Position numbers: made by a program
DNA from: Candidatus Babeliales bacterium
Lineage (GTDB): Bacteria; Babelota; Babeliae; Babelales; JBFXEV01
Assembly (NCBI GenBank): GCA_050179755.1
Contig: JBFXEV010000001.1
Coordinates: 681,994 to 745,993 of the forward strand
Reading direction: 5' to 3'
DNA length: 64,000 nt
Shown: one piece after another, positions 30,001-36,000 of the stretch
Position numbering within the stretch: the first letter of the stretch is position 1
Layout: each line of letters begins with the position of its first letter

Positions 30001-33000
30001 TTATATTTGTATCTGAAAAGGTTTCTATGGAATAAATATATTATAAAAGAGGATCGTGTTTTGAGCAGAGTTCCTAAAAATTAATTTTTACAACAAGGTT
30101 TTTTCATGAACAAATATATTATACATATTCACATTTTTTTATTAACTGTTTTTTGCTCAGCTTCTCCTGCTGTTGACCCAATAAAAGCATTGTTTGCCAA
30201 TAGGCCCTGGGATTTTGTGGAGCAGATTTTTGTCATTGAGCCACATGCTCAACTCAACGCTTTTAGCAGTAGCATGAAGCGCTGGATTCCTGCGCTTGCG
30301 GCTGGAACTGCAGCGGGCTATGGTACCTATAAATTAGCTGAACATGCGATTTTAGAACAGCAAGAAACATTTAAATGGAAAGAATTTACTCAAAAAGTTG
30401 GTTCGCCAATAGTTGGGGTTATTGGTTTATCTGCTGTGTATAGAGTTGCGCGTGCCTATACTGAGCGTAGTATTGATTTACAAGTATTAACGCAATTTAT
30501 TGTAGAATGGGAAGAAAATAAACAATATACTCCTATTGAATTGCATGAATCATGTGACGCATTATATCAATTATTTATGCAAGAAGGCGCAACTGCTCGT
30601 TATAATGAAGTTGCTCATAAAATAGCACCAATATTAAAGCGAACTATTTATCAGCATTTTCCTAACAAATACCGCGAGCAACTACAAAGTTTGGAACGCG
30701 CTTATTTTTCCGACAGTATAATGTTTACGGTATTTCATTTTGAAGTTGATGTGGCGCGAGTTTTAGAAGTAACCGCTCGTATTGTGCGGGCATTTTTTGT
30801 TGATCCTGATCATCGAAAGAACAGATAATATTAATGTTAATTAAGGGCAGGTGATTTTGGGTTGACTGCTTTTTTAAAAAGGAGAGTATATGGAAAGAAA
30901 GGTAGGAAAGCACATAATCACCACCACCAATGAAGATGTAATTTGGTTTCCAAAATCAAAGATAACCAAGGGTGACGTGCTTAATTATTATGAAAAAATT
31001 GCACCAATTATGGTGCCACACATGTATGGTCATCCGGTAACAATGCTTCGGTATGTCGATGGCATACAAGGTGAAGGGTTTTATCACAAAGATGCGCCAA
31101 CGTATTTTCCAAAATGGATCAAGCGATGTAATGTTGCAAAAAAAGAAGATGGCACAACAAGTTATGTGTTGTGTAATGAACCCGCAACGTTAGTTTATTT
31201 GGCACAACAAGCATGCCTTGTGCCACATCTCTGGCTGAGTAAATGTGATAAGCTTAATTCTCCTGATCTTTTAATTTTTGATTTAGATCCGGCAAAACAA
31301 CCATTTTCATTTATTTGTGATGTTGCGTTACGATTAAAAGAAATCTTAGAAGCGAATAATTTGGTGCCATTTATAAAACTTACTGGCTCCCGCGGTTTAC
31401 ATGTTACCGTACCCATAAAACGTTTGTATACGTTTGATTTTGTTCGTGATTTTGCAAAGGAAGTTGGCCAAATTTTGGTTGAAGATGATCCTAAAAATCT
31501 TACCATGGAAATCAGAAAAGAAAAAAGAAAAGGGCGGTTATTTATTGATATTAATCGTAATGGATTTACCGCAACAGCTGTGGCGCCATATGCCATTCGT
31601 GCATATGAAAAGGCGCCGGTTGCAGCACCATTACTTTGGGATGAAGTGAAGAAAAAAGGTTTGACCGCTCAAAAATATAACATCTCAAATATATTCAAGC
31701 GGTTGTCGCGTATCGGCGATCCATGGCATGATATACAAAAGCATGCTACAAAGTTGCCGTAGAATATCTGTTGTTATTATATAAATATGGTATACTTTAA
31801 AATATATGATTTAGCTGTCCAGGAGGCCCTTATGAAACTACCATTACCAGATTTAGTTCCTCAATATATCGTTGACAAGTCAGGCAAAAAAACTAGTGTT
31901 GTTATTGATATAGCAAGATTTGAGCATTTTTTAGATGAAGTTGAAGATATGTATCTTGCTCTTCTTGCCAAAAAAACTCTTGAAGAAGATGACGAGTATG
32001 TTTCACATGAGGATGTGCGGCGCATGAGCGGAGATAAAGAGTAATTTCATGCAGCATGCTAAAATGAAAAAAGTTATTTGGCGAGCAAAGGCTTCAAAGC
32101 AATTTTTGAAATTACCTCGTTATGATCGTGATGCAGTTATTGGAAAGATAGATCTCCTTGCTTCAGGCGCACTTAATTTAGACATTAAGAAGCTGAAGGG
32201 TTACGACTTTTATAGGCTACGAGTTGGTACTTACCGAGTTATATATCAACTCATTGATGGGGAGTTTTGCATCGTGATTATAGGCGTTGGGCATCGAAAA
32301 CAAGTATACGATGATTTATAATTTTTTATTGATTTTCTTACGTTCAAACTCATAAAATCTACATCAACCCACTCACATTTTTGTATAACTAGATGTAAGT
32401 GGGTTGATAAAAAATCCTTAACCTAACGGCCTTCCGCCTTTTAAATTATGATCAGTTCTTTCAGGGTATTTTTCACCACGTTTTTTCTCTAATTTTTCAA
32501 GAGCCTTTTGGAGTGCATCTTCTGCAAAGGCAGTGAGTGTTAACCCCGGCTCCCAATAGACTGCATCTTTTACCTTATTAATGAGGTCGGTTGAAAGATG
32601 AATGGTTACTCGTTGCTTTGGTGAAACATCACTTGTATCATTTTTTGTTTTTTGCGCTGTGCTATTTTTTTTAGGCTCAATTTCTTGAGACAAGTAAGCC
32701 ATTAACGGATTACTGCCAATTGTTTTTTTATTACTCATGTAAACTCCTTGCTTATATAATTCCTTAATAATCCCGCGAATGTGGTATTTTGAAAAAATGA
32801 CAAAGTTATTCGAGAGATTTCAAACAATAACTGTTTGTTTCTGTTCCTGCAAAATCACTTCACTTGCCAAACTTCTATAATCGAATGCACCATACGAGCG
32901 TGTATCATATTCAGTAATTGGTTTGGTAAATGAAGGCGCTTCAGAAAGCCGCACGTTCTCACGAATTGCCGTTTTATAAAGCATTCCCTTAAAGTTAGAT

Positions 33001-36000
33001 TCAAGCGCAGATACTACTTCTTTTGCATGTTTGGTTCTACCATCAACACGGCAGGGCACAATGCCTGCAATATGCAAATCTTTATTTAACCGTTCTTTAA
33101 TTACATCAATAGTTTGCATTAATTGTACCAAGCCGCTCAATGCCATTACGCGTGCTTCTACCGGAATAATCACTTCTTGCACGGCAGTGAGTGCATTGAT
33201 GGTCAATATTCCTAAATTGGGTGGGCAATCGATAAGCACATAATCATACTTGCCGGAGAGTTTTTTGAATTGCTGTTTTAAAATTGTTTCTGAGCCAACT
33301 TCATGCGCCAAGGCTTTATCAAGGCCAAAGAGCCAATTTGATGCAGGAACGGCATCAAGATATTCAACTTCTGTTCTGGTGATAATGGCATCAATGTGTA
33401 CTTTGTTTACAAATACATCATAGAGGCTTTTACCATCACCGTCTGATACGCCAAGCCACGAGCTTGTAGATCCTTGCGGATCAAGATCAATGAGTAATAC
33501 GTTTCGTTTGTTTTCAGCAAGACCTGCTGCAAGATTTACGGCGGTAGTTGTTTTGCCACTGCCACCTTTTTGATTAATTACCGCAATTGTGCGCATTCAC
33601 TACTCCTAGTATAAAGTTAATCATAACTGATATAACTTTATGATAATAGGAGTGTTGTTGTCAATGATTACTATGCAGACAAGGTGTACGTTGTATTAGC
33701 GAGCAACTTACTGTTCATGTTTTTCAAGTAATTGTGCAATATCAGTATGGCCTGCTTCTTGTGCAAACATGCGCGGTGTTTGGCCTTTGTTATCGTTTGT
33801 GTAAACATCTGAGCCATGCGCCAAAAGTAATTCCACAATCTCTCTGTTTCCTCCATACGATGCATAATGGAGTGGAATTCTACCGAATTTATCTTTTATA
33901 TTTACCTGAGCACCATGAGCTATAAGCAATTGTGGGGTTTCTAAATTATATTGAATATGTAACGCCGTTCGGTTAAGGTCATCTTGAGCATTCACTTTCG
34001 CACCATGAGTCAGTAGTAGTTCAGTGATTTCTACATTTCTTGCACCATGCAATGCTCTCCTGCCATCAACGTCTTTTGCGTTCACGTCAGCGCCATGGAT
34101 CAATAGTAGTTTAACTATATCTTTCCAGAAGAGGTGGGGTGAATGAGTGTGTAAGGCTGTTTTGCCATCCATATCTTTTGCATTTACATCTGCGTTATGT
34201 GCTATCAAGAAAGCAGCCATTGGTGGAGTGAATGCGTAATGGAGTGCTGTTTTGCCACGATTATCTTTGGCATTTATATCTGCACCATGCTCTAGTAATA
34301 ATTTAATGATGTTAGGGTGCCATGCCAGGTGAATTGCTGCATTTCCGTCATCATTTTTTATATTCACATTTGCACCGTGCGCTAATAATACTTTAATGAG
34401 TGATGTTTTCTCACTGCTACCCCATAATAATGAAGGATTCTTTAAAGCTTTTTTTAATAGTTCAGTTGCATCAGCACCAGCAGCTAACTTTTTCTTGATG
34501 ATGAATATTTTTACTTTGTTAATGATAGTAACAATATAGTGCTGAATGCGCGTCCATATATGTCTTGCAAAGATTATACCACCAACCAAAAGAATAAATC
34601 CTATCAAATAAATTAATGCGTTCTTCATATACACCTTGCATGAGATATTTGGTTTCTTATTTCTGTTCTTATCAAATACTTGGCATGTTATATTGGCAGA
34701 AGATGTATTTTGTTATTTGGTTATTGTTACCCGTATAGCTTGCCCTTTTTTAGTTTTTTTATCGCAAGCCCGTGAGTGAACATCGCTTGCGGTATGAATA
34801 AAGAGTTGTTGTATTCATGAGTTATTACGATTAGCCAACAGGTGGCATATAATTATCAACAAATACGCTAAAACCAAGCGGTGCAGCTGGCTTCAATAAG
34901 ATGTCTATTCTGGTAATATTACAGTCTGGTATCAATATTAATTCATTGCCATTGCCAATACCAGTTAACTTTTTCACCGTTAATTTGGTGGGGCATGGAA
35001 AATTTAGAATACCCGTAGGTTGATGAGGGTGAAATCGTTGCACTAATGTTTGGCCATTTTGTGCTTCAAATTTTATTTCTATTATGCCATCAGTAAAGTT
35101 TCGAAAGTTTCCCGGTTGAATTACAAATGCTTGTATTCCAGAGGTAGCTATTAAGGTTAAAGCTAGTGTTAGTGCATAGATTATTTTATTATTTTTCATG
35201 ATTTTCCTTTTTAAGGTAATCATCCACGAGTTTCCTCGTGGATGATTTAATTTACTATTCTCTTTTACTTAATTTGCTGCGTTAAGATCACCTTTAAGAG
35301 TTGTTCCAAAGAAATTAGGTATCTGGTATGTTCCATCATTTTGAACATTGATTTTTAAGTTACCAAAATCTTTTTTGAGCGGTGTGTAAATAGTCAAAGT
35401 TTCAGTCCATTGTTTTGCACGAGGGCCTTTTGCATATACTTTGATAGCTGTATGTCTTTTTGGATCAGCTGCTTTTGCATCTGTGGCTTCTTGTGCTACT
35501 TTTGCAGGCGTTCCTTCGGGGAACGATTCATCAAGACTAAATACGTAAAATAATATTTTATACGGTTCGTTTGGATACGGCCCTTTAGAGAAAGTTATTG
35601 CATACAATTTTTTGCCAACATTGGGAACAGGTAATATAATTTCTTTATTCTCAGTGATGGTGCGAAAATTTGTAATATTCTTTTGTGCTTCGAGAGTATT
35701 ATAATCTTCTCTATCACCAGCAGAACCCATTACTTTTGAGGCTGAGTGTCCTTTTGCTGTTATAACTTGCTTGCAACCAGTTGCGCCTTCGCCGCAAATT
35801 ATCTGAACTGATTCTATATCTTCTTTTTTAATCTCAACTTGGTTACTGTCTTGTTTTGCAAAACTCATCTGTATGAGAGCCAAGCAAGCAAGAGCGGCAA
35901 GGGTTGTTATTTTATTGTTCATGAGAACTCCTTTTTTATTTAGTGGCATATTGTATCATAGTGATAAAGATTATCTATGTACAGATAAGGCCTAATATCT

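Follow-up and report, generated by a model that had tools for sequence, protein, structure and literature searches.

A ParA/ribbon-helix-helix cassette as the probable partition system of a Babelota chromosome without ParB, parS or SMC-type condensin

How is a bacterial chromosome partitioned where ParB and SMC-type condensins are missing? The question is raised by a locus of a Candidatus Babeliales bacterium, in which a Soj-type parA is followed by a gene for a 106-residue protein; it lies in a window (the whole stretch of DNA analysed) of 64,000 nucleotides. We consider it probable that the two genes form a type Ib-like ParA/ribbon-helix-helix (RHH) partition cassette serving as the chromosome's own partition system, in a phylum without ParB, parS or SMC-type condensin. 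A small, plasmid-style, putative DNA-binding partner would then probably do ParB's job in this parasite bacterium and, if this is true, the pair would represent chromosome partition without ParB or any SMC-type condensin.

Absence of ParB, parS and condensins

The genome, a single contig 96.09% complete, gave no match to SMC_hinge, ScpA, ScpB or MukB and none to ParB_N at E<=1, in agreement with the survey's finding that SMC, ScpA/ScpB, MukB and ParB are lacking; no parS word with at most one mismatch occurs in it. The survey had further proposed that the phylum lost the ParB-parS-SMC axis as a whole, having searched for ParB and MukB in one genome, and our search of 261 Babelota genomes supports that proposal. 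SMC_hinge was detected in 0 of 261 (controls were positive in 10 of 14), and MksE/JetB (DUF4194) passed the cut-off in none. ParB_N was found in seven genomes, only four of them over the cut-off, scattered sporadically across five families, and all seven are assemblies of at least 40 contigs. Matches to MukB in 13 of the 261 genomes were rejected, as they are confined to the Walker-A part, profile positions 4-49 of 226, and lie in frames the size of RecF. The statement that SMC_N occurs only on RecF did not hold: there are 23 weak matches in this genome, including UvrA, ABC ATPases and an SbcC/Rad50-like protein of 922 aa that bears a CPLC hook. We accept none of the 23 as a condensin.

The parA gene and its downstream partner

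The reading frames are as previously described, with parA and the 106-aa gene on the same strand and separated by 81 bp:

31787..32044, plus strand: RelB-like gene, convergent with the partner gene and parA
32049..32321, plus strand: ParE/RelE gene, convergent with the partner gene and parA
32418..32738, minus strand: partner gene, putative centromere-binding protein of family A, ORF of 106 aa
32739..32819, minus strand: parA-partner spacer of 81 bp with an AAGGAG ribosome-binding site
32820..33596, minus strand: parA, Soj-like deviant Walker-A ATPase, ORF of 258 aa without N-terminal HTH extension

The Soj-type assignment is borne out by a profile match to AAA_31 (9.4e-56) and by the nearest PDB structures, which are Soj/ParA proteins (E 2.4e-60 to 1.4e-46). 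Identity to the Bacillus Soj taken from locus L132 is 44% over 248 aa, close to the 46.9% reported earlier for B. subtilis Soj, and KGGxGKTT, DLDPQG and the Arg187 position align between the two proteins. Residues K10, G11, G12, K15, T16, D37, D39 and R187 are invariant among 26 orthologues. Both genes are under strong purifying selection, with dN/dS of 0.03-0.06 for ParA and 0.035-0.24 for the partner.

The pairing proved stronger than the two of three other genomes first reported. A partner lies directly downstream of parA on the same strand in 30 of 30 family-A loci (parA 60-92% identical), usually after a spacer of 20-90 bp, and the genome G208 likewise has a family-A partner straight after parA. 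Among more distant ParA loci, 26 of 28 continue with a small RHH-type partner of another family (family B 15, C 6, D 4, other 1; two truncated). These proteins share the layout of family A, namely a basic N-terminus, a linker and a strand-helix-helix, and the partner families correspond to ParA clades.

Architecture of the partner protein

No Pfam or NCBIfam family passes its cut-off on the partner, consistent with its earlier description as a protein without family. Its weak matches (BrnA_antitoxin 0.081, YlcI_YnfO_N 0.031) all belong to families that we take to be RHH-type, and they fall on the core or its edge. Homologues numbered 64 at first and 861 with a profile. Four parts can be distinguished:

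32691..32738, minus strand: basic N-terminal peptide, codons 1-16, putative ParA-activating tail, consensus KKKTIGxNPLxxYL
32619..32690, minus strand: variable K/E/S/T-rich linker, codons 17-40, predicted disordered (pLDDT 46-57)
32469..32618, minus strand: RHH-like core, codons 41-90, with an extended KQRVTIH, helix 50-62 and helix 68-88 (pLDDT 81-90)
32421..32468, minus strand: conserved C-terminal tail, codons 91-106, ending LKGGRPL

In 41 aligned sequences, T6, L12 and Y15 of the N-terminal peptide are invariant and K5, I7 and P11 are at least 90% conserved; the AF2 model places a short helix at 11-20. The peptide resembles the Spo0J N-terminus (read from L132) as well as the HpParB peptide MAKNKVLGRG, which contacts HpParA (PMC11229316). 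By this analogy it may be a ParA-activating tail. The linker varies in length and sequence among homologues, where insertions can reach about 60 aa. Invariant positions in the same alignment include Q42, R43, T45, K57, V60, W62, P64, G65, T67, E84 and G88 in the core and R94, L99, G101, G102, R103 and P104 in the tail, whose LKGGRPL may resemble a GRP minor-groove hook.

The suggestion that the C-terminal half is RHH-like, made originally by eye, agrees with the strand-helix-helix topology of the AF2 core (pLDDT 81-90). Compact structural matches of the partner are mostly RHH proteins, each below significance: ParD 7b22 (Z 3.8, rmsd 2.6 over 48) and pCXC100 ParB 3no7 (Z 3.1, rmsd 2.6 over 47), neither significant alone, together with PrpA and ParD. 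The best RHH Foldseek E was 4.3 and the best VIA Z 3.8, so the partner itself has no significant structural match; SegB-DNA 7dv2 appeared as a weak Foldseek row, and the family profile found no solved relative by sequence. Sister family B speaks more clearly: its model matches CopG (Foldseek probability 0.98), ParG 1p94 (0.96, rmsd 1.1 over 40) and omega 1irq, with McdB as a weak match, and hhalign joins families A and B at E 2.7e-4 over 50 core columns. Neighbours of the partner in the ESM Atlas include CB_ParB_C and Antitox_RHH. The predicted core, the family-B matches and a homologous pair on the plasmid pCher all point to the proposed plasmid-style RHH partner.

Inheritance and genomic setting

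ParA is patchy, as first noticed: at E<=1e-10 it occurs in 53 of the 261 phylum genomes, so the phylum largely manages without it, and the family-A partner is present in 32. Housekeeping genes surround the pair (in family f2 aspS, gatB, rng, mnmE and ruvA, in f12 dnaK, in f1 leuS), this synteny is stable across genera, and no integrase, transposase or replication gene lies near the pair. Five changes suffice to map the taxonomic-family labels onto the ParA tree; no fewer are possible, the shuffled mean is 24.8, and 0 of 200 shuffles came as low. The pair is thus vertically inherited and fixed in the chromosome, although the split of the chromosomal clade from the plasmid pair is supported only at 67/92. 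The G208 copy stands apart: it groups with that of a Cardinium plasmid, and placing it vertically is rejected by an AU test (p 2.8e-5) for a group that was named once the tree had been seen. This copy was horizontally acquired, and the cassette can move.

We took oriC as the DnaA-box cluster at the GC-skew minimum. The pair lies about 15 kb from it in G007 (1.3% of the chromosome), about 195 kb in G000 (12.8%) and about 242 kb in G121 (13%). In G101 (f12) the distance to the DnaA-box cluster is about 493 kb (about 41%), which counts against the partition reading, and three f2 genomes showed no perfect-box DnaA cluster; an origin-proximal position is therefore not general.

Candidate sites around the genes

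Two inverted repeats flank the pair:

33598..33654, no strand: imperfect palindrome lying between the promoter region and the start codon of parA, candidate operator/centromere
32363..32408, no strand: hairpin in the gap where the partner gene and parE converge (16-nt arms, 94% complementary, 14-nt loop)

Centromere sites, not sought in the survey, were searched for from the upstream palindromes in this genome and around the 30 loci; no centromere was found, and the palindrome is a weak candidate as operator or centromere. Its arms of 22 nt are 77% complementary with 13 nt between them. The genome holds a single copy of the inner part (33611-33641), ATAAAGTT-N15-AACTTTAT, and shuffled genomes hold zero to one. 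In G121 the same half-site belongs to a perfect palindrome of 26 nt, and palindromes of the AAGGTaaACCTT type are seen in G233, G098 and G101; the other loci among the 30 share no common palindrome. The upstream palindrome is recognisable in only about six of 30 loci though the beta-strand residues are invariant, which again counts against us. DnaA boxes in oriC have the half-site AAAGTTAT beside them as well; the words found there are simply DnaA boxes plus flank. The hairpin is bordered on both sides by T/A runs, has a similar counterpart in G121 and is probably a two-way terminator.

Alternative explanations and proposed mechanism

The pair could be what is left of an integrated plasmid: a captured partition cassette that has ceased to segregate anything and is kept for a side function, such as RHH transcriptional control, or has not yet been lost. 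Its closest relative outside the chromosomal clade sits on the conjugative plasmid pCher, the G208 copy moved horizontally, a RelB/ParE pair adjoins the cassette in G000, and family A is patchy. In addition, parA is broken in G010 and G030, which also counts against a partition role, and second cassettes (families C and D) occur in some genomes on short contigs near nucleotidyltransferase or toxin-antitoxin-like genes. We nevertheless hold this explanation unlikely, given the strong purifying selection on both genes, a ParA tree that follows taxonomic families with minimum changes and a stable housekeeping synteny free of integrase, transposase and replication genes; the toxin-antitoxin pair is missing at the same place in G121, hence a separate insertion. 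The survey's own doubt that this is an accessory, plasmid-derived module is weakened by the vertical inheritance and housekeeping setting, and the patchiness behind it (53 of 261) stands.

ParA might also act without a centromere, regulating DnaA and replication in the manner of Soj or positioning non-DNA cargo in the manner of McdAB, with the small protein as adaptor, activator or repressor. Cargo of many kinds is positioned by ParA/MinD ATPases that work with small disordered adaptors, and the Soj type of this ParA, the missing centromere, the weak McdB match of the family-B model and the AAAGTTAT flanks in oriC would all fit. The predicted core, however, has the DNA-binding fold of known centromere-binding proteins, the same pair occurs in a plasmid replication/partition block, and the oriC words are DnaA boxes and flank, making a centromere-free role quite improbable. 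It seems very improbable indeed that the small protein has no part in ParA function, being an RHH antitoxin or regulator placed beside parA only by operon packaging: weak family matches and many structural matches do lead to RHH antitoxins (ParD, MazE, TacA, BrnA), yet no toxin gene follows the partner, it is linked to parA in 30 of 30 loci, its family shifts with the ParA clade, and its N-terminal tail is ParB-like, a feature absent from antitoxins.

For the favoured partition cassette, we infer dimerisation, DNA binding, contact with ParA and a role in segregation for the partner. The beta-ribbon of the RHH core would let partner dimers recognise short, repeated stretches of DNA. One candidate for such a site is the palindrome at the parA promoter, where binding would also autoregulate. 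The flexible linker would offer the basic N-terminal peptide to nucleoid-bound ParA-ATP dimers and the peptide would stimulate ATP hydrolysis, such that the protein-DNA complex follows the ParA gradient by a diffusion-ratchet, as in ParF/ParG, delta/omega, pCXC100 ParA/ParB, SegAB and HpaAB.

Comparison with known partition systems

ParABS (Soj/Spo0J-ParB/parS) shares the Soj-type ParA, and the partner begins with a peptide similar to the ParA-activating tail of ParB. The f2 locus about 15 kb from oriC and near mnmE, a usual neighbour of classical par loci, is likewise ParABS-like. ParB, in contrast, has a ParB_N/CTPase domain and an HTH, both lacking in the partner, and this genome has no parS, no SMC to load and neither ScpA nor ScpB.

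SegAB of Sulfolobales and HpaAB of Haloferax volcanii pHV3 combine a ParA-type ATPase of bacterial kind with a small, partly disordered, site-specific RHH DNA binder encoded just downstream; the N-terminus is needed for interplay with the ATPase, and the systems act on chromosomes or secondary chromosomes (PMC8682754, PMC13722703). They belong to another domain of life, and we found no sequence relation to them.

The type Ib systems (TP228 ParF/ParG, pSM19035 delta/omega, pCXC100 ParA/ParB) likewise have a small Walker-type ParA without HTH extension, and partners about 70-130 aa long, whose flexible N-terminal tail bears one or more ParA-activating basic residues and whose C-terminal RHH dimer binds repeats near the operon. 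At 44% identity, the ParA described here is closer to chromosomal Soj than plasmid ParF or delta would typically be. The partner has no similarity to ParG, omega or pCXC100 ParB detectable by Pfam/profile search, and those partners lack its extra invariant LKGGRPL tail. Type Ib pairs, among them pCXC100 ParA/ParB (PMC3074162), are plasmid-borne, whereas the pair described here lies in the chromosome amid housekeeping genes, is passed on vertically and constitutes the genome's only ParA system.

True homologues of both proteins occur in the same order and spacing on pCher of Cardinium (NC_018606.1; WP_014935028.1 and WP_014935027.1), the only plasmid copy found. This ParA is 54% identical and the partner 40% identical over 99% of its length (E 7e-12); the pair, which carries no annotation beyond 'ParA family protein' and 'hypothetical protein', adjoins toprim and VapE replication genes. 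pCher is a 57.8-kb conjugative plasmid of a Bacteroidota symbiont, unlike the chromosomal setting here, and in the tree its pair falls with G208 and not within the chromosomal clade that is inherited vertically.

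The ParA gene and its small partner

The survey's finding of a Soj-type ParA followed by a small protein (hereafter the partner, or family A) holds at the level of the genes, and both reading frames were confirmed:

32820-33596, (-) strand: parA, ORF of 258 aa
32418-32738, (-) strand: partner gene, ORF of 106 aa, 81 bp downstream of parA

The ParA protein matches the Pfam profile AAA_31 (E 9.4e-56) from residue 1, has no N-terminal helix-turn-helix (HTH) domain, and carries the deviant Walker A motif NQKGGSGKTT at residues 8-17. Its closest solved structures are Soj/ParA proteins (8ray, 2.4e-60; H. 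pylori Soj, 5.6e-47; T. thermophilus Soj, 1.4e-46). Bacillus Soj, taken from the fetched locus L132, is 44% identical to it over 248 aa, with Walker A, the DLDPQG motif and the position of Arg187, which we take to have a role in DNA binding, all in register. Across four close pairs dN/dS ranged over 0.03-0.06 in ParA and 0.035-0.24 in the partner; one more pair was saturated. Family-A parA is broken in two Dependentiae/Babelota genomes (G numbers; L numbers are fetched loci, C numbers contigs), with stop codons or a split in two in G010 (L038, C1:149.5-150.3 kb) and one TGA in G030 (L034, C1:296.3-297.0 kb); the partner gene is open in both, and the breaks may reflect decay or assembly error.

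We detected no Pfam or NCBIfam family above its cut-off in the partner. All of its weak matches fell within E 0.03-0.18, among them YlcI_YnfO_N (0.031) and BrnA_antitoxin (0.081), and we take these families to be of ribbon-helix-helix (RHH) type. A first search returned 64 homologues and a profile 861 proteins at E<=0.001; named entries are few and come from Dependentiae/Babeliales, and one JGI record is labelled 'predicted DNA binding CopG/RHH family protein'. Judged by its sequence, the partner family is new. An alignment of 41 homologues revealed a conserved N-terminal peptide (consensus KKKTIGxNPLxxYL; T6, L12 and Y15 invariant), a linker that varies in length and composition, a core that reads KQRVTIHxSVDLIxRVKNAVYWEPGLTLTxFAExALxKALxKLEKxRG with 11 invariant positions, and an invariant C-terminal tail, R94...L99-K-G-G-R-P. 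The N-terminal residues K3-K5, T6, I7, G8, P11, L12 and Y15 are present and conserved in the partner.

The AlphaFold model of the partner has a mean pLDDT of 71, with 81-90 over residues 41-90, and consists of an extended segment, a helix at 50-62 and a helix at 68-88, a topology matching that of a single RHH chain; it is a monomer model, in which the ribbon itself cannot form. Foldseek returned no row at E<=0.001, and its compact rows were RHH proteins (PrpA and ParD, with SegB and Reg576 at higher rmsd). The best Z of VIA-align against 48,161 chains was 3.8, and the low-rmsd rows were mostly RHH proteins, including ParD, MazE6, TacA, the centromere-binding ParB of pCXC100, PutA, NikR, CopA and TraM; the MatP RHH domain scored Z 3.8 at an rmsd of 5.2. 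The sequence route found no solved relative, and the ESM Atlas neighbours, which are leads only, include clusters with CB_ParB_C, Antitox_RHH and DUF5388. Because the alignment tool itself warns that such Z values prove no fold, we regard the modelled topology as strongly suggestive of an RHH fold in family A.

The N-terminal peptide can be compared with ParB tails. Sections of PMC11229316 report that the HpParB peptide MAKNKVLGRG binds HpParA via Lys3, Val6, Leu7 and Arg9, and that stimulation of the ParA ATPase in Thermus and Bacillus needs the basic residues of the tail. The Spo0J that adjoins Bacillus Soj in L132 begins with MQVAKGLGRGINVFF. N-termini of a second partner family, B, read MKKGLGSIPKGLAWI or MKKRLGxIPKGLEWI, and the tails of families A and B both have basic residues, then [LI]-G, then a hydrophobic end. 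Because the tail of the partner resembles, by eye, those of Spo0J and HpParB, it may contact ParA and have a putative ParA-activating role.

Pairing of ParA with small partners across the phylum

Relatives of the window's ParA occur in 53 of the 261 phylum genomes at E<=1e-10, which agrees with the patchiness that the survey had reported. A profile search placed the family-A gene in 32 of the 261 (25 of 189 of good quality), concentrated in the taxonomic families f12 (10/10), f2 (14/41), f21 (5/80), f5 (1/14) and f1, the last of which holds the window's own genome (G000) and its congener G121. At all 30 fetched family-A loci, a ParA 60-92% identical to the window's lies directly upstream on the same strand. 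More distant ParA genes (32-48% identity) are followed in the same layout by a small protein of another sequence family at 26 of 28 fetched loci (family B at 15, family C at six, family D at four and one further type; two are truncated), the loci without one being G161 and a partial ParA in G010. The clades of the ParA tree coincide with the partner families, and pairing of ParA with a small partner is the rule in this phylum. A narrow search of genome contigs with a single peptide pattern gave 14 loci, only in Dependentiae-type MAGs, and does not bound the range of the family.

Family B, with the pattern MKKRLGxIPKGLEWI ... RATFI ... AYWER, was modelled with a pLDDT of 92-96 over its two helices. 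Nearly all of the Foldseek rows listed for it were RHH proteins (CopG at probability 0.98, ParG at 0.96 with an rmsd of 1.1 over 40 residues, omega at 0.89, and Arc), although the small size of the domain keeps their E-values at 0.28 or worse; the model predicts an RHH fold for family B. Over the core, hhalign aligned families A and B at E 2.7e-4 and probability 42%, and the alignment of A with C was not significant (E 0.074).

Several further arrangements were seen. ParA genes of the phylum (L101-L128) are also followed by small RHH-type partners of four or more further families, and five genomes each combine cassettes from two families (G072 and G034, A+B; G007, A+D; G019, A+C; G207, C+D). 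Some copies of families C and D are on short contigs, by nucleotidyltransferase or toxin-antitoxin-like genes.

Missing segregation machinery

ParB-parS is the usual loading site of SMC. The survey had proposed that this axis was lost as a whole, and our searches of the 261 genomes extend the absence to the phylum. SMC_hinge was found in none (controls positive in 10 of 14), nor was DUF4194 (MksE/JetB) above its cut-off (control positive in C. glutamicum). All MukB matches, in 13 genomes, are confined to the Walker-A part of the profile (positions 4-49 of 226) and lie in RecF-sized frames of 352-381 aa. ParB_N (PF02195) is sporadic: seven genomes have matches, four of them above the cut-off, and these seven are scattered and each assembled in at least 40 contigs. 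These rare matches (G181:C82, G158:C236, G144:C27 and four more; L044-L053), which include a 708-aa protein and short frames, may be mobile-element proteins or contamination.

The window's own genome gave no ParB_N match at E<=1 and no ScpA or ScpB; FtsK is present. Searched with the 16-bp palindromic sequence that we take as the parS consensus, it has no parS word with up to one mismatch and one with two mismatches, against 0-2 in shuffles. Three of its sixteen three-mismatch matches lie within 2.2 kb (G000:C1:130,182, 132,147 and 132,378). The genome's only long SMC_N-type protein is encoded outside the window:

G000:C1:983,280-986,048, (-) strand: SbcC/Rad50-like ATPase, 922 aa (SMC_N/AAA_23, SbcC_Walker_B, CPLC hook)

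We assign it to the Rad50/SbcC type because of its SbcC Walker B and CPLC hook; no SbcD/Mre11 gene lies beside it. In print, a passage of PMC4378268 describes Babela massiliensis as lacking Smc 'compared with JCVI TM6SC1', and the main text of the TM6 comparative paper (PMC4776705) has no mention of SMC, ParA, ParB, Soj, segregation or partitioning. Full-text searches on Dependentiae with chromosome segregation, SMC or ParB gave nothing relevant, leaving the B. massiliensis Smc absence as the only such statement found.

Neighbourhood, inheritance and a plasmid relative

The window sits in a single-contig chromosome of 1.525 Mb, among leuS and other host genes, and is not plasmid-borne. In G000 an ankyrin-repeat gene lies upstream of the pair, leuS lies further on, and two neighbours follow the partner gene:

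31787-32321, (+) strand: RelB-like/ParE pair, convergent with the partner gene
30890-31762, (+) strand: stand-alone LigD primase-polymerase domain gene (LigD_Prim-Pol 5.2e-85), which adjoins the pair in G121 too

The RelB/ParE genes that the survey had noted do adjoin the partner gene in G000, but they are missing at the same place in the congeneric G121 and are therefore a separate, recent insertion outside the par unit. A plasmid-style maintenance cluster of the pair with LigD-PrimPol and RelB/ParE was considered and rejected, since G121 lacks the toxin-antitoxin genes at this place and the LigD-PrimPol neighbour is restricted to f1.

Genomes of one taxonomic family share the gene order around the pair, which is made up of housekeeping genes:

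f2 (seven genomes, two genera): aspS - gatB - small ORF - parA - partner - rng - OmpA-like - VanY - mnmE - ... - ruvA
f12: preceded by genes for EamA and ABC transporters, followed by dnaK
f1 (G000, G121): preceded by genes for ankyrin and secreted proteins, followed by LigD-PrimPol and leuS

The small ORF of f2 (70-97 aa, conserved, without a Pfam family) separates gatB from parA in five of the seven f2 genomes compared (L086-L096) and could be a third component or unrelated. The rng and gatB genes, which flank the pair in f2, lie at 624-630 kb in G000 and enclose another ORF of 675 aa; the pair has therefore moved in f1.

The survey had feared an accessory, plasmid-derived module, a doubt that the vertical inheritance of the pair among housekeeping genes weakens. 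Besides purifying selection and housekeeping synteny, the ParA tree speaks against such a module. This tree covers 47 rows, drawn from families A and B, from pCher and, as outgroup, from Bacillus; it leaves aside families C and D, G161 and two plasmid ParAs on long branches. On its 29 chromosomal family-A rows, in six label groups, the taxonomic-family labels change five times, which is the minimum; shuffled labels gave a mean of 24.8 changes and were as low as five in 0 of 200 shuffles. Supports were 100/100 for f1, 100/96 for f21, 77/92 for f12 and 66/48 for f2, and the tree fits vertical descent with many losses. In favour of a plasmid origin, the partner had one match among 72,556 plasmid records (40% identity, E 7e-12), on pCher, the plasmid of the Cardinium symbiont of Encarsia. 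There the homologue directly follows a ParA 54% identical to the window's, with toprim and VapE genes adjoining, and the two are likely the partition cassette of a real plasmid. The pCher ParA groups with that of G208 at 100/99, sister to the chromosomal clade at 67/92, and an AU test on a group named after the tree had been seen rejects placement of G208 among the remaining f21 rows (p 2.8e-5), so the cassette is occasionally mobile. FtsW/RodA and a HicAB pair are encoded close to the G208 copy, and the nearby FtsW/RodA speaks against its contig, C37, being a plasmid. The original transfer may have run either from plasmid to chromosome or from chromosome to plasmid. The pCher pair, together with the suggestive family-A topology, the family-B matches and the A-B alignment, supports the survey's reading of the partner as RHH-like and plasmid-style.

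We consider it probable that the parA-partner pair, a type-Ib-like cassette, takes part in partitioning the chromosome. The smaller part of the probability is divided among three other readings: a plasmid cassette that became domesticated, a ParA that serves a different purpose, and a simple regulator.

Position relative to the origin, and upstream palindromes

We placed oriC from DnaA boxes. In G000, nine of 27 perfect boxes form two inverted arrays (C1:520,181-520,435) exactly at the cumulative GC-skew minimum; in G007, a whole chromosome, four of ten are at 652,022, which is the skew minimum there too, and the box-cluster regions of the two genomes are syntenic. We saw no clusters of perfect boxes in three f2 genomes.

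Distance of the parA-partner pair from oriC
G007: ~15 kb, 1.3% of the chromosome
G000: ~195 kb, 12.8% of the chromosome
G121 (boxes 788.1-788.4 kb): ~242 kb, 13%
G101 (f12; boxes 964.9-965.2 kb): ~493 kb, ~41%

The pair is origin-proximal in three of the four genomes with oriC placed (G007, G000 and G121) and not in G101. The dnaA gene was rejected as an origin marker: in both G000 and G007, 42-43% of the chromosome separates it from the box cluster at the skew minimum. In G000 it lies at C1:1,178,308, 658 kb from the oriC arrays (43% of the chromosome) and 80 kb from the skew maximum. G007 has the same layout (boxes at 652 kb, dnaA at 0.5 kb), and dnaA is far from the box cluster in G121 and G101 too.

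The search for a centromere around the pair did not identify one; a palindrome, a weak candidate, covers the parA promoter:

33598-33654: imperfect palindrome; inner part ATAAAGTT-N15-AACTTTAT at 33611-33641

The strict inner form occurs once in the genome and 0-1 times in shuffled genomes, and G121 carries its half-site in a perfect palindrome of 26 nt. Elsewhere we detected palindromes with ATAAAGGTaaACCTTTAT in G233 and CAAGGTaaACCTTG in G098 and G101, and an everted pair in G218; several f2 loci instead have tandem 9-bp TGTTAAT repeats. Half-sites related to the window's palindrome occur at about six of 30 loci, and the best inverted repeats vary from clade to clade. Given the invariance of Q42, R43 and T45 in the beta-strand, a shared sub-site was expected, but none could be defined among the 30 upstream regions, nor was a motif common to all of them found. 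Their k-mer enrichment mostly recovered the ribosome-binding site; CATAAA is in 15 of the 30 against a null of 6.3, a count taken over loci related to each other. Spacers and downstream regions held only ribosome-binding sites and terminators. The half-site AAAGTTAT is densest in oriC, and this cluster was rejected as a centromere since the word is a DnaA box with its flank.

Implications and comparison with known systems

A whole phylum of intracellular parasites is without ParB, SMC, MukB and Mks, and where it has kept a Soj-type ParA, this goes with a plasmid-style, putatively RHH-type partner. If the pair segregates the chromosome, it would be a natural non-orthologous replacement of ParB and would show how little machinery a bacterial chromosome of 1-2 Mb needs. 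We suggest tentatively, as a possibility that falls somewhat short of even, that in Dependentiae ParB was replaced at an old origin-proximal par locus (in f2 by mnmE, ~15 kb from oriC) by an unrelated RHH protein with a ParB-like ParA-activating tail. Such a replacement would mean CTP-independent and SMC-independent segregation of a bacterial main chromosome and the first chromosomal centromere binder in bacteria other than HTH ParB, and the 208 of 261 genomes without such a ParA would segregate without any ParA, ParB or SMC-type machine. At 258 and 106 aa, the pair offers a compact in vitro system in which a putative ParB-like tail on a different DNA-binding scaffold would drive a Soj ATPase.

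The centromere binders of bacterial chromosomes are all HTH ParB proteins according to reviews (Funnell 2016), and archaeal SegAB and HpaAB (PMC8682754, PMC13722703) are the nearest parallels in function on chromosomes. Compared with chromosomal ParABS, the window's genome is without ParB_N and without parS within one mismatch. The likeness to type-Ib systems lies in a Walker-type ParA without an N-terminal HTH domain and a putative RHH partner with a basic N-terminal tail; unlike the known ones, the locus described here is chromosomal and vertically inherited, has a Soj-type ParA, and belongs to a phylum without ParB and SMC-type condensins.
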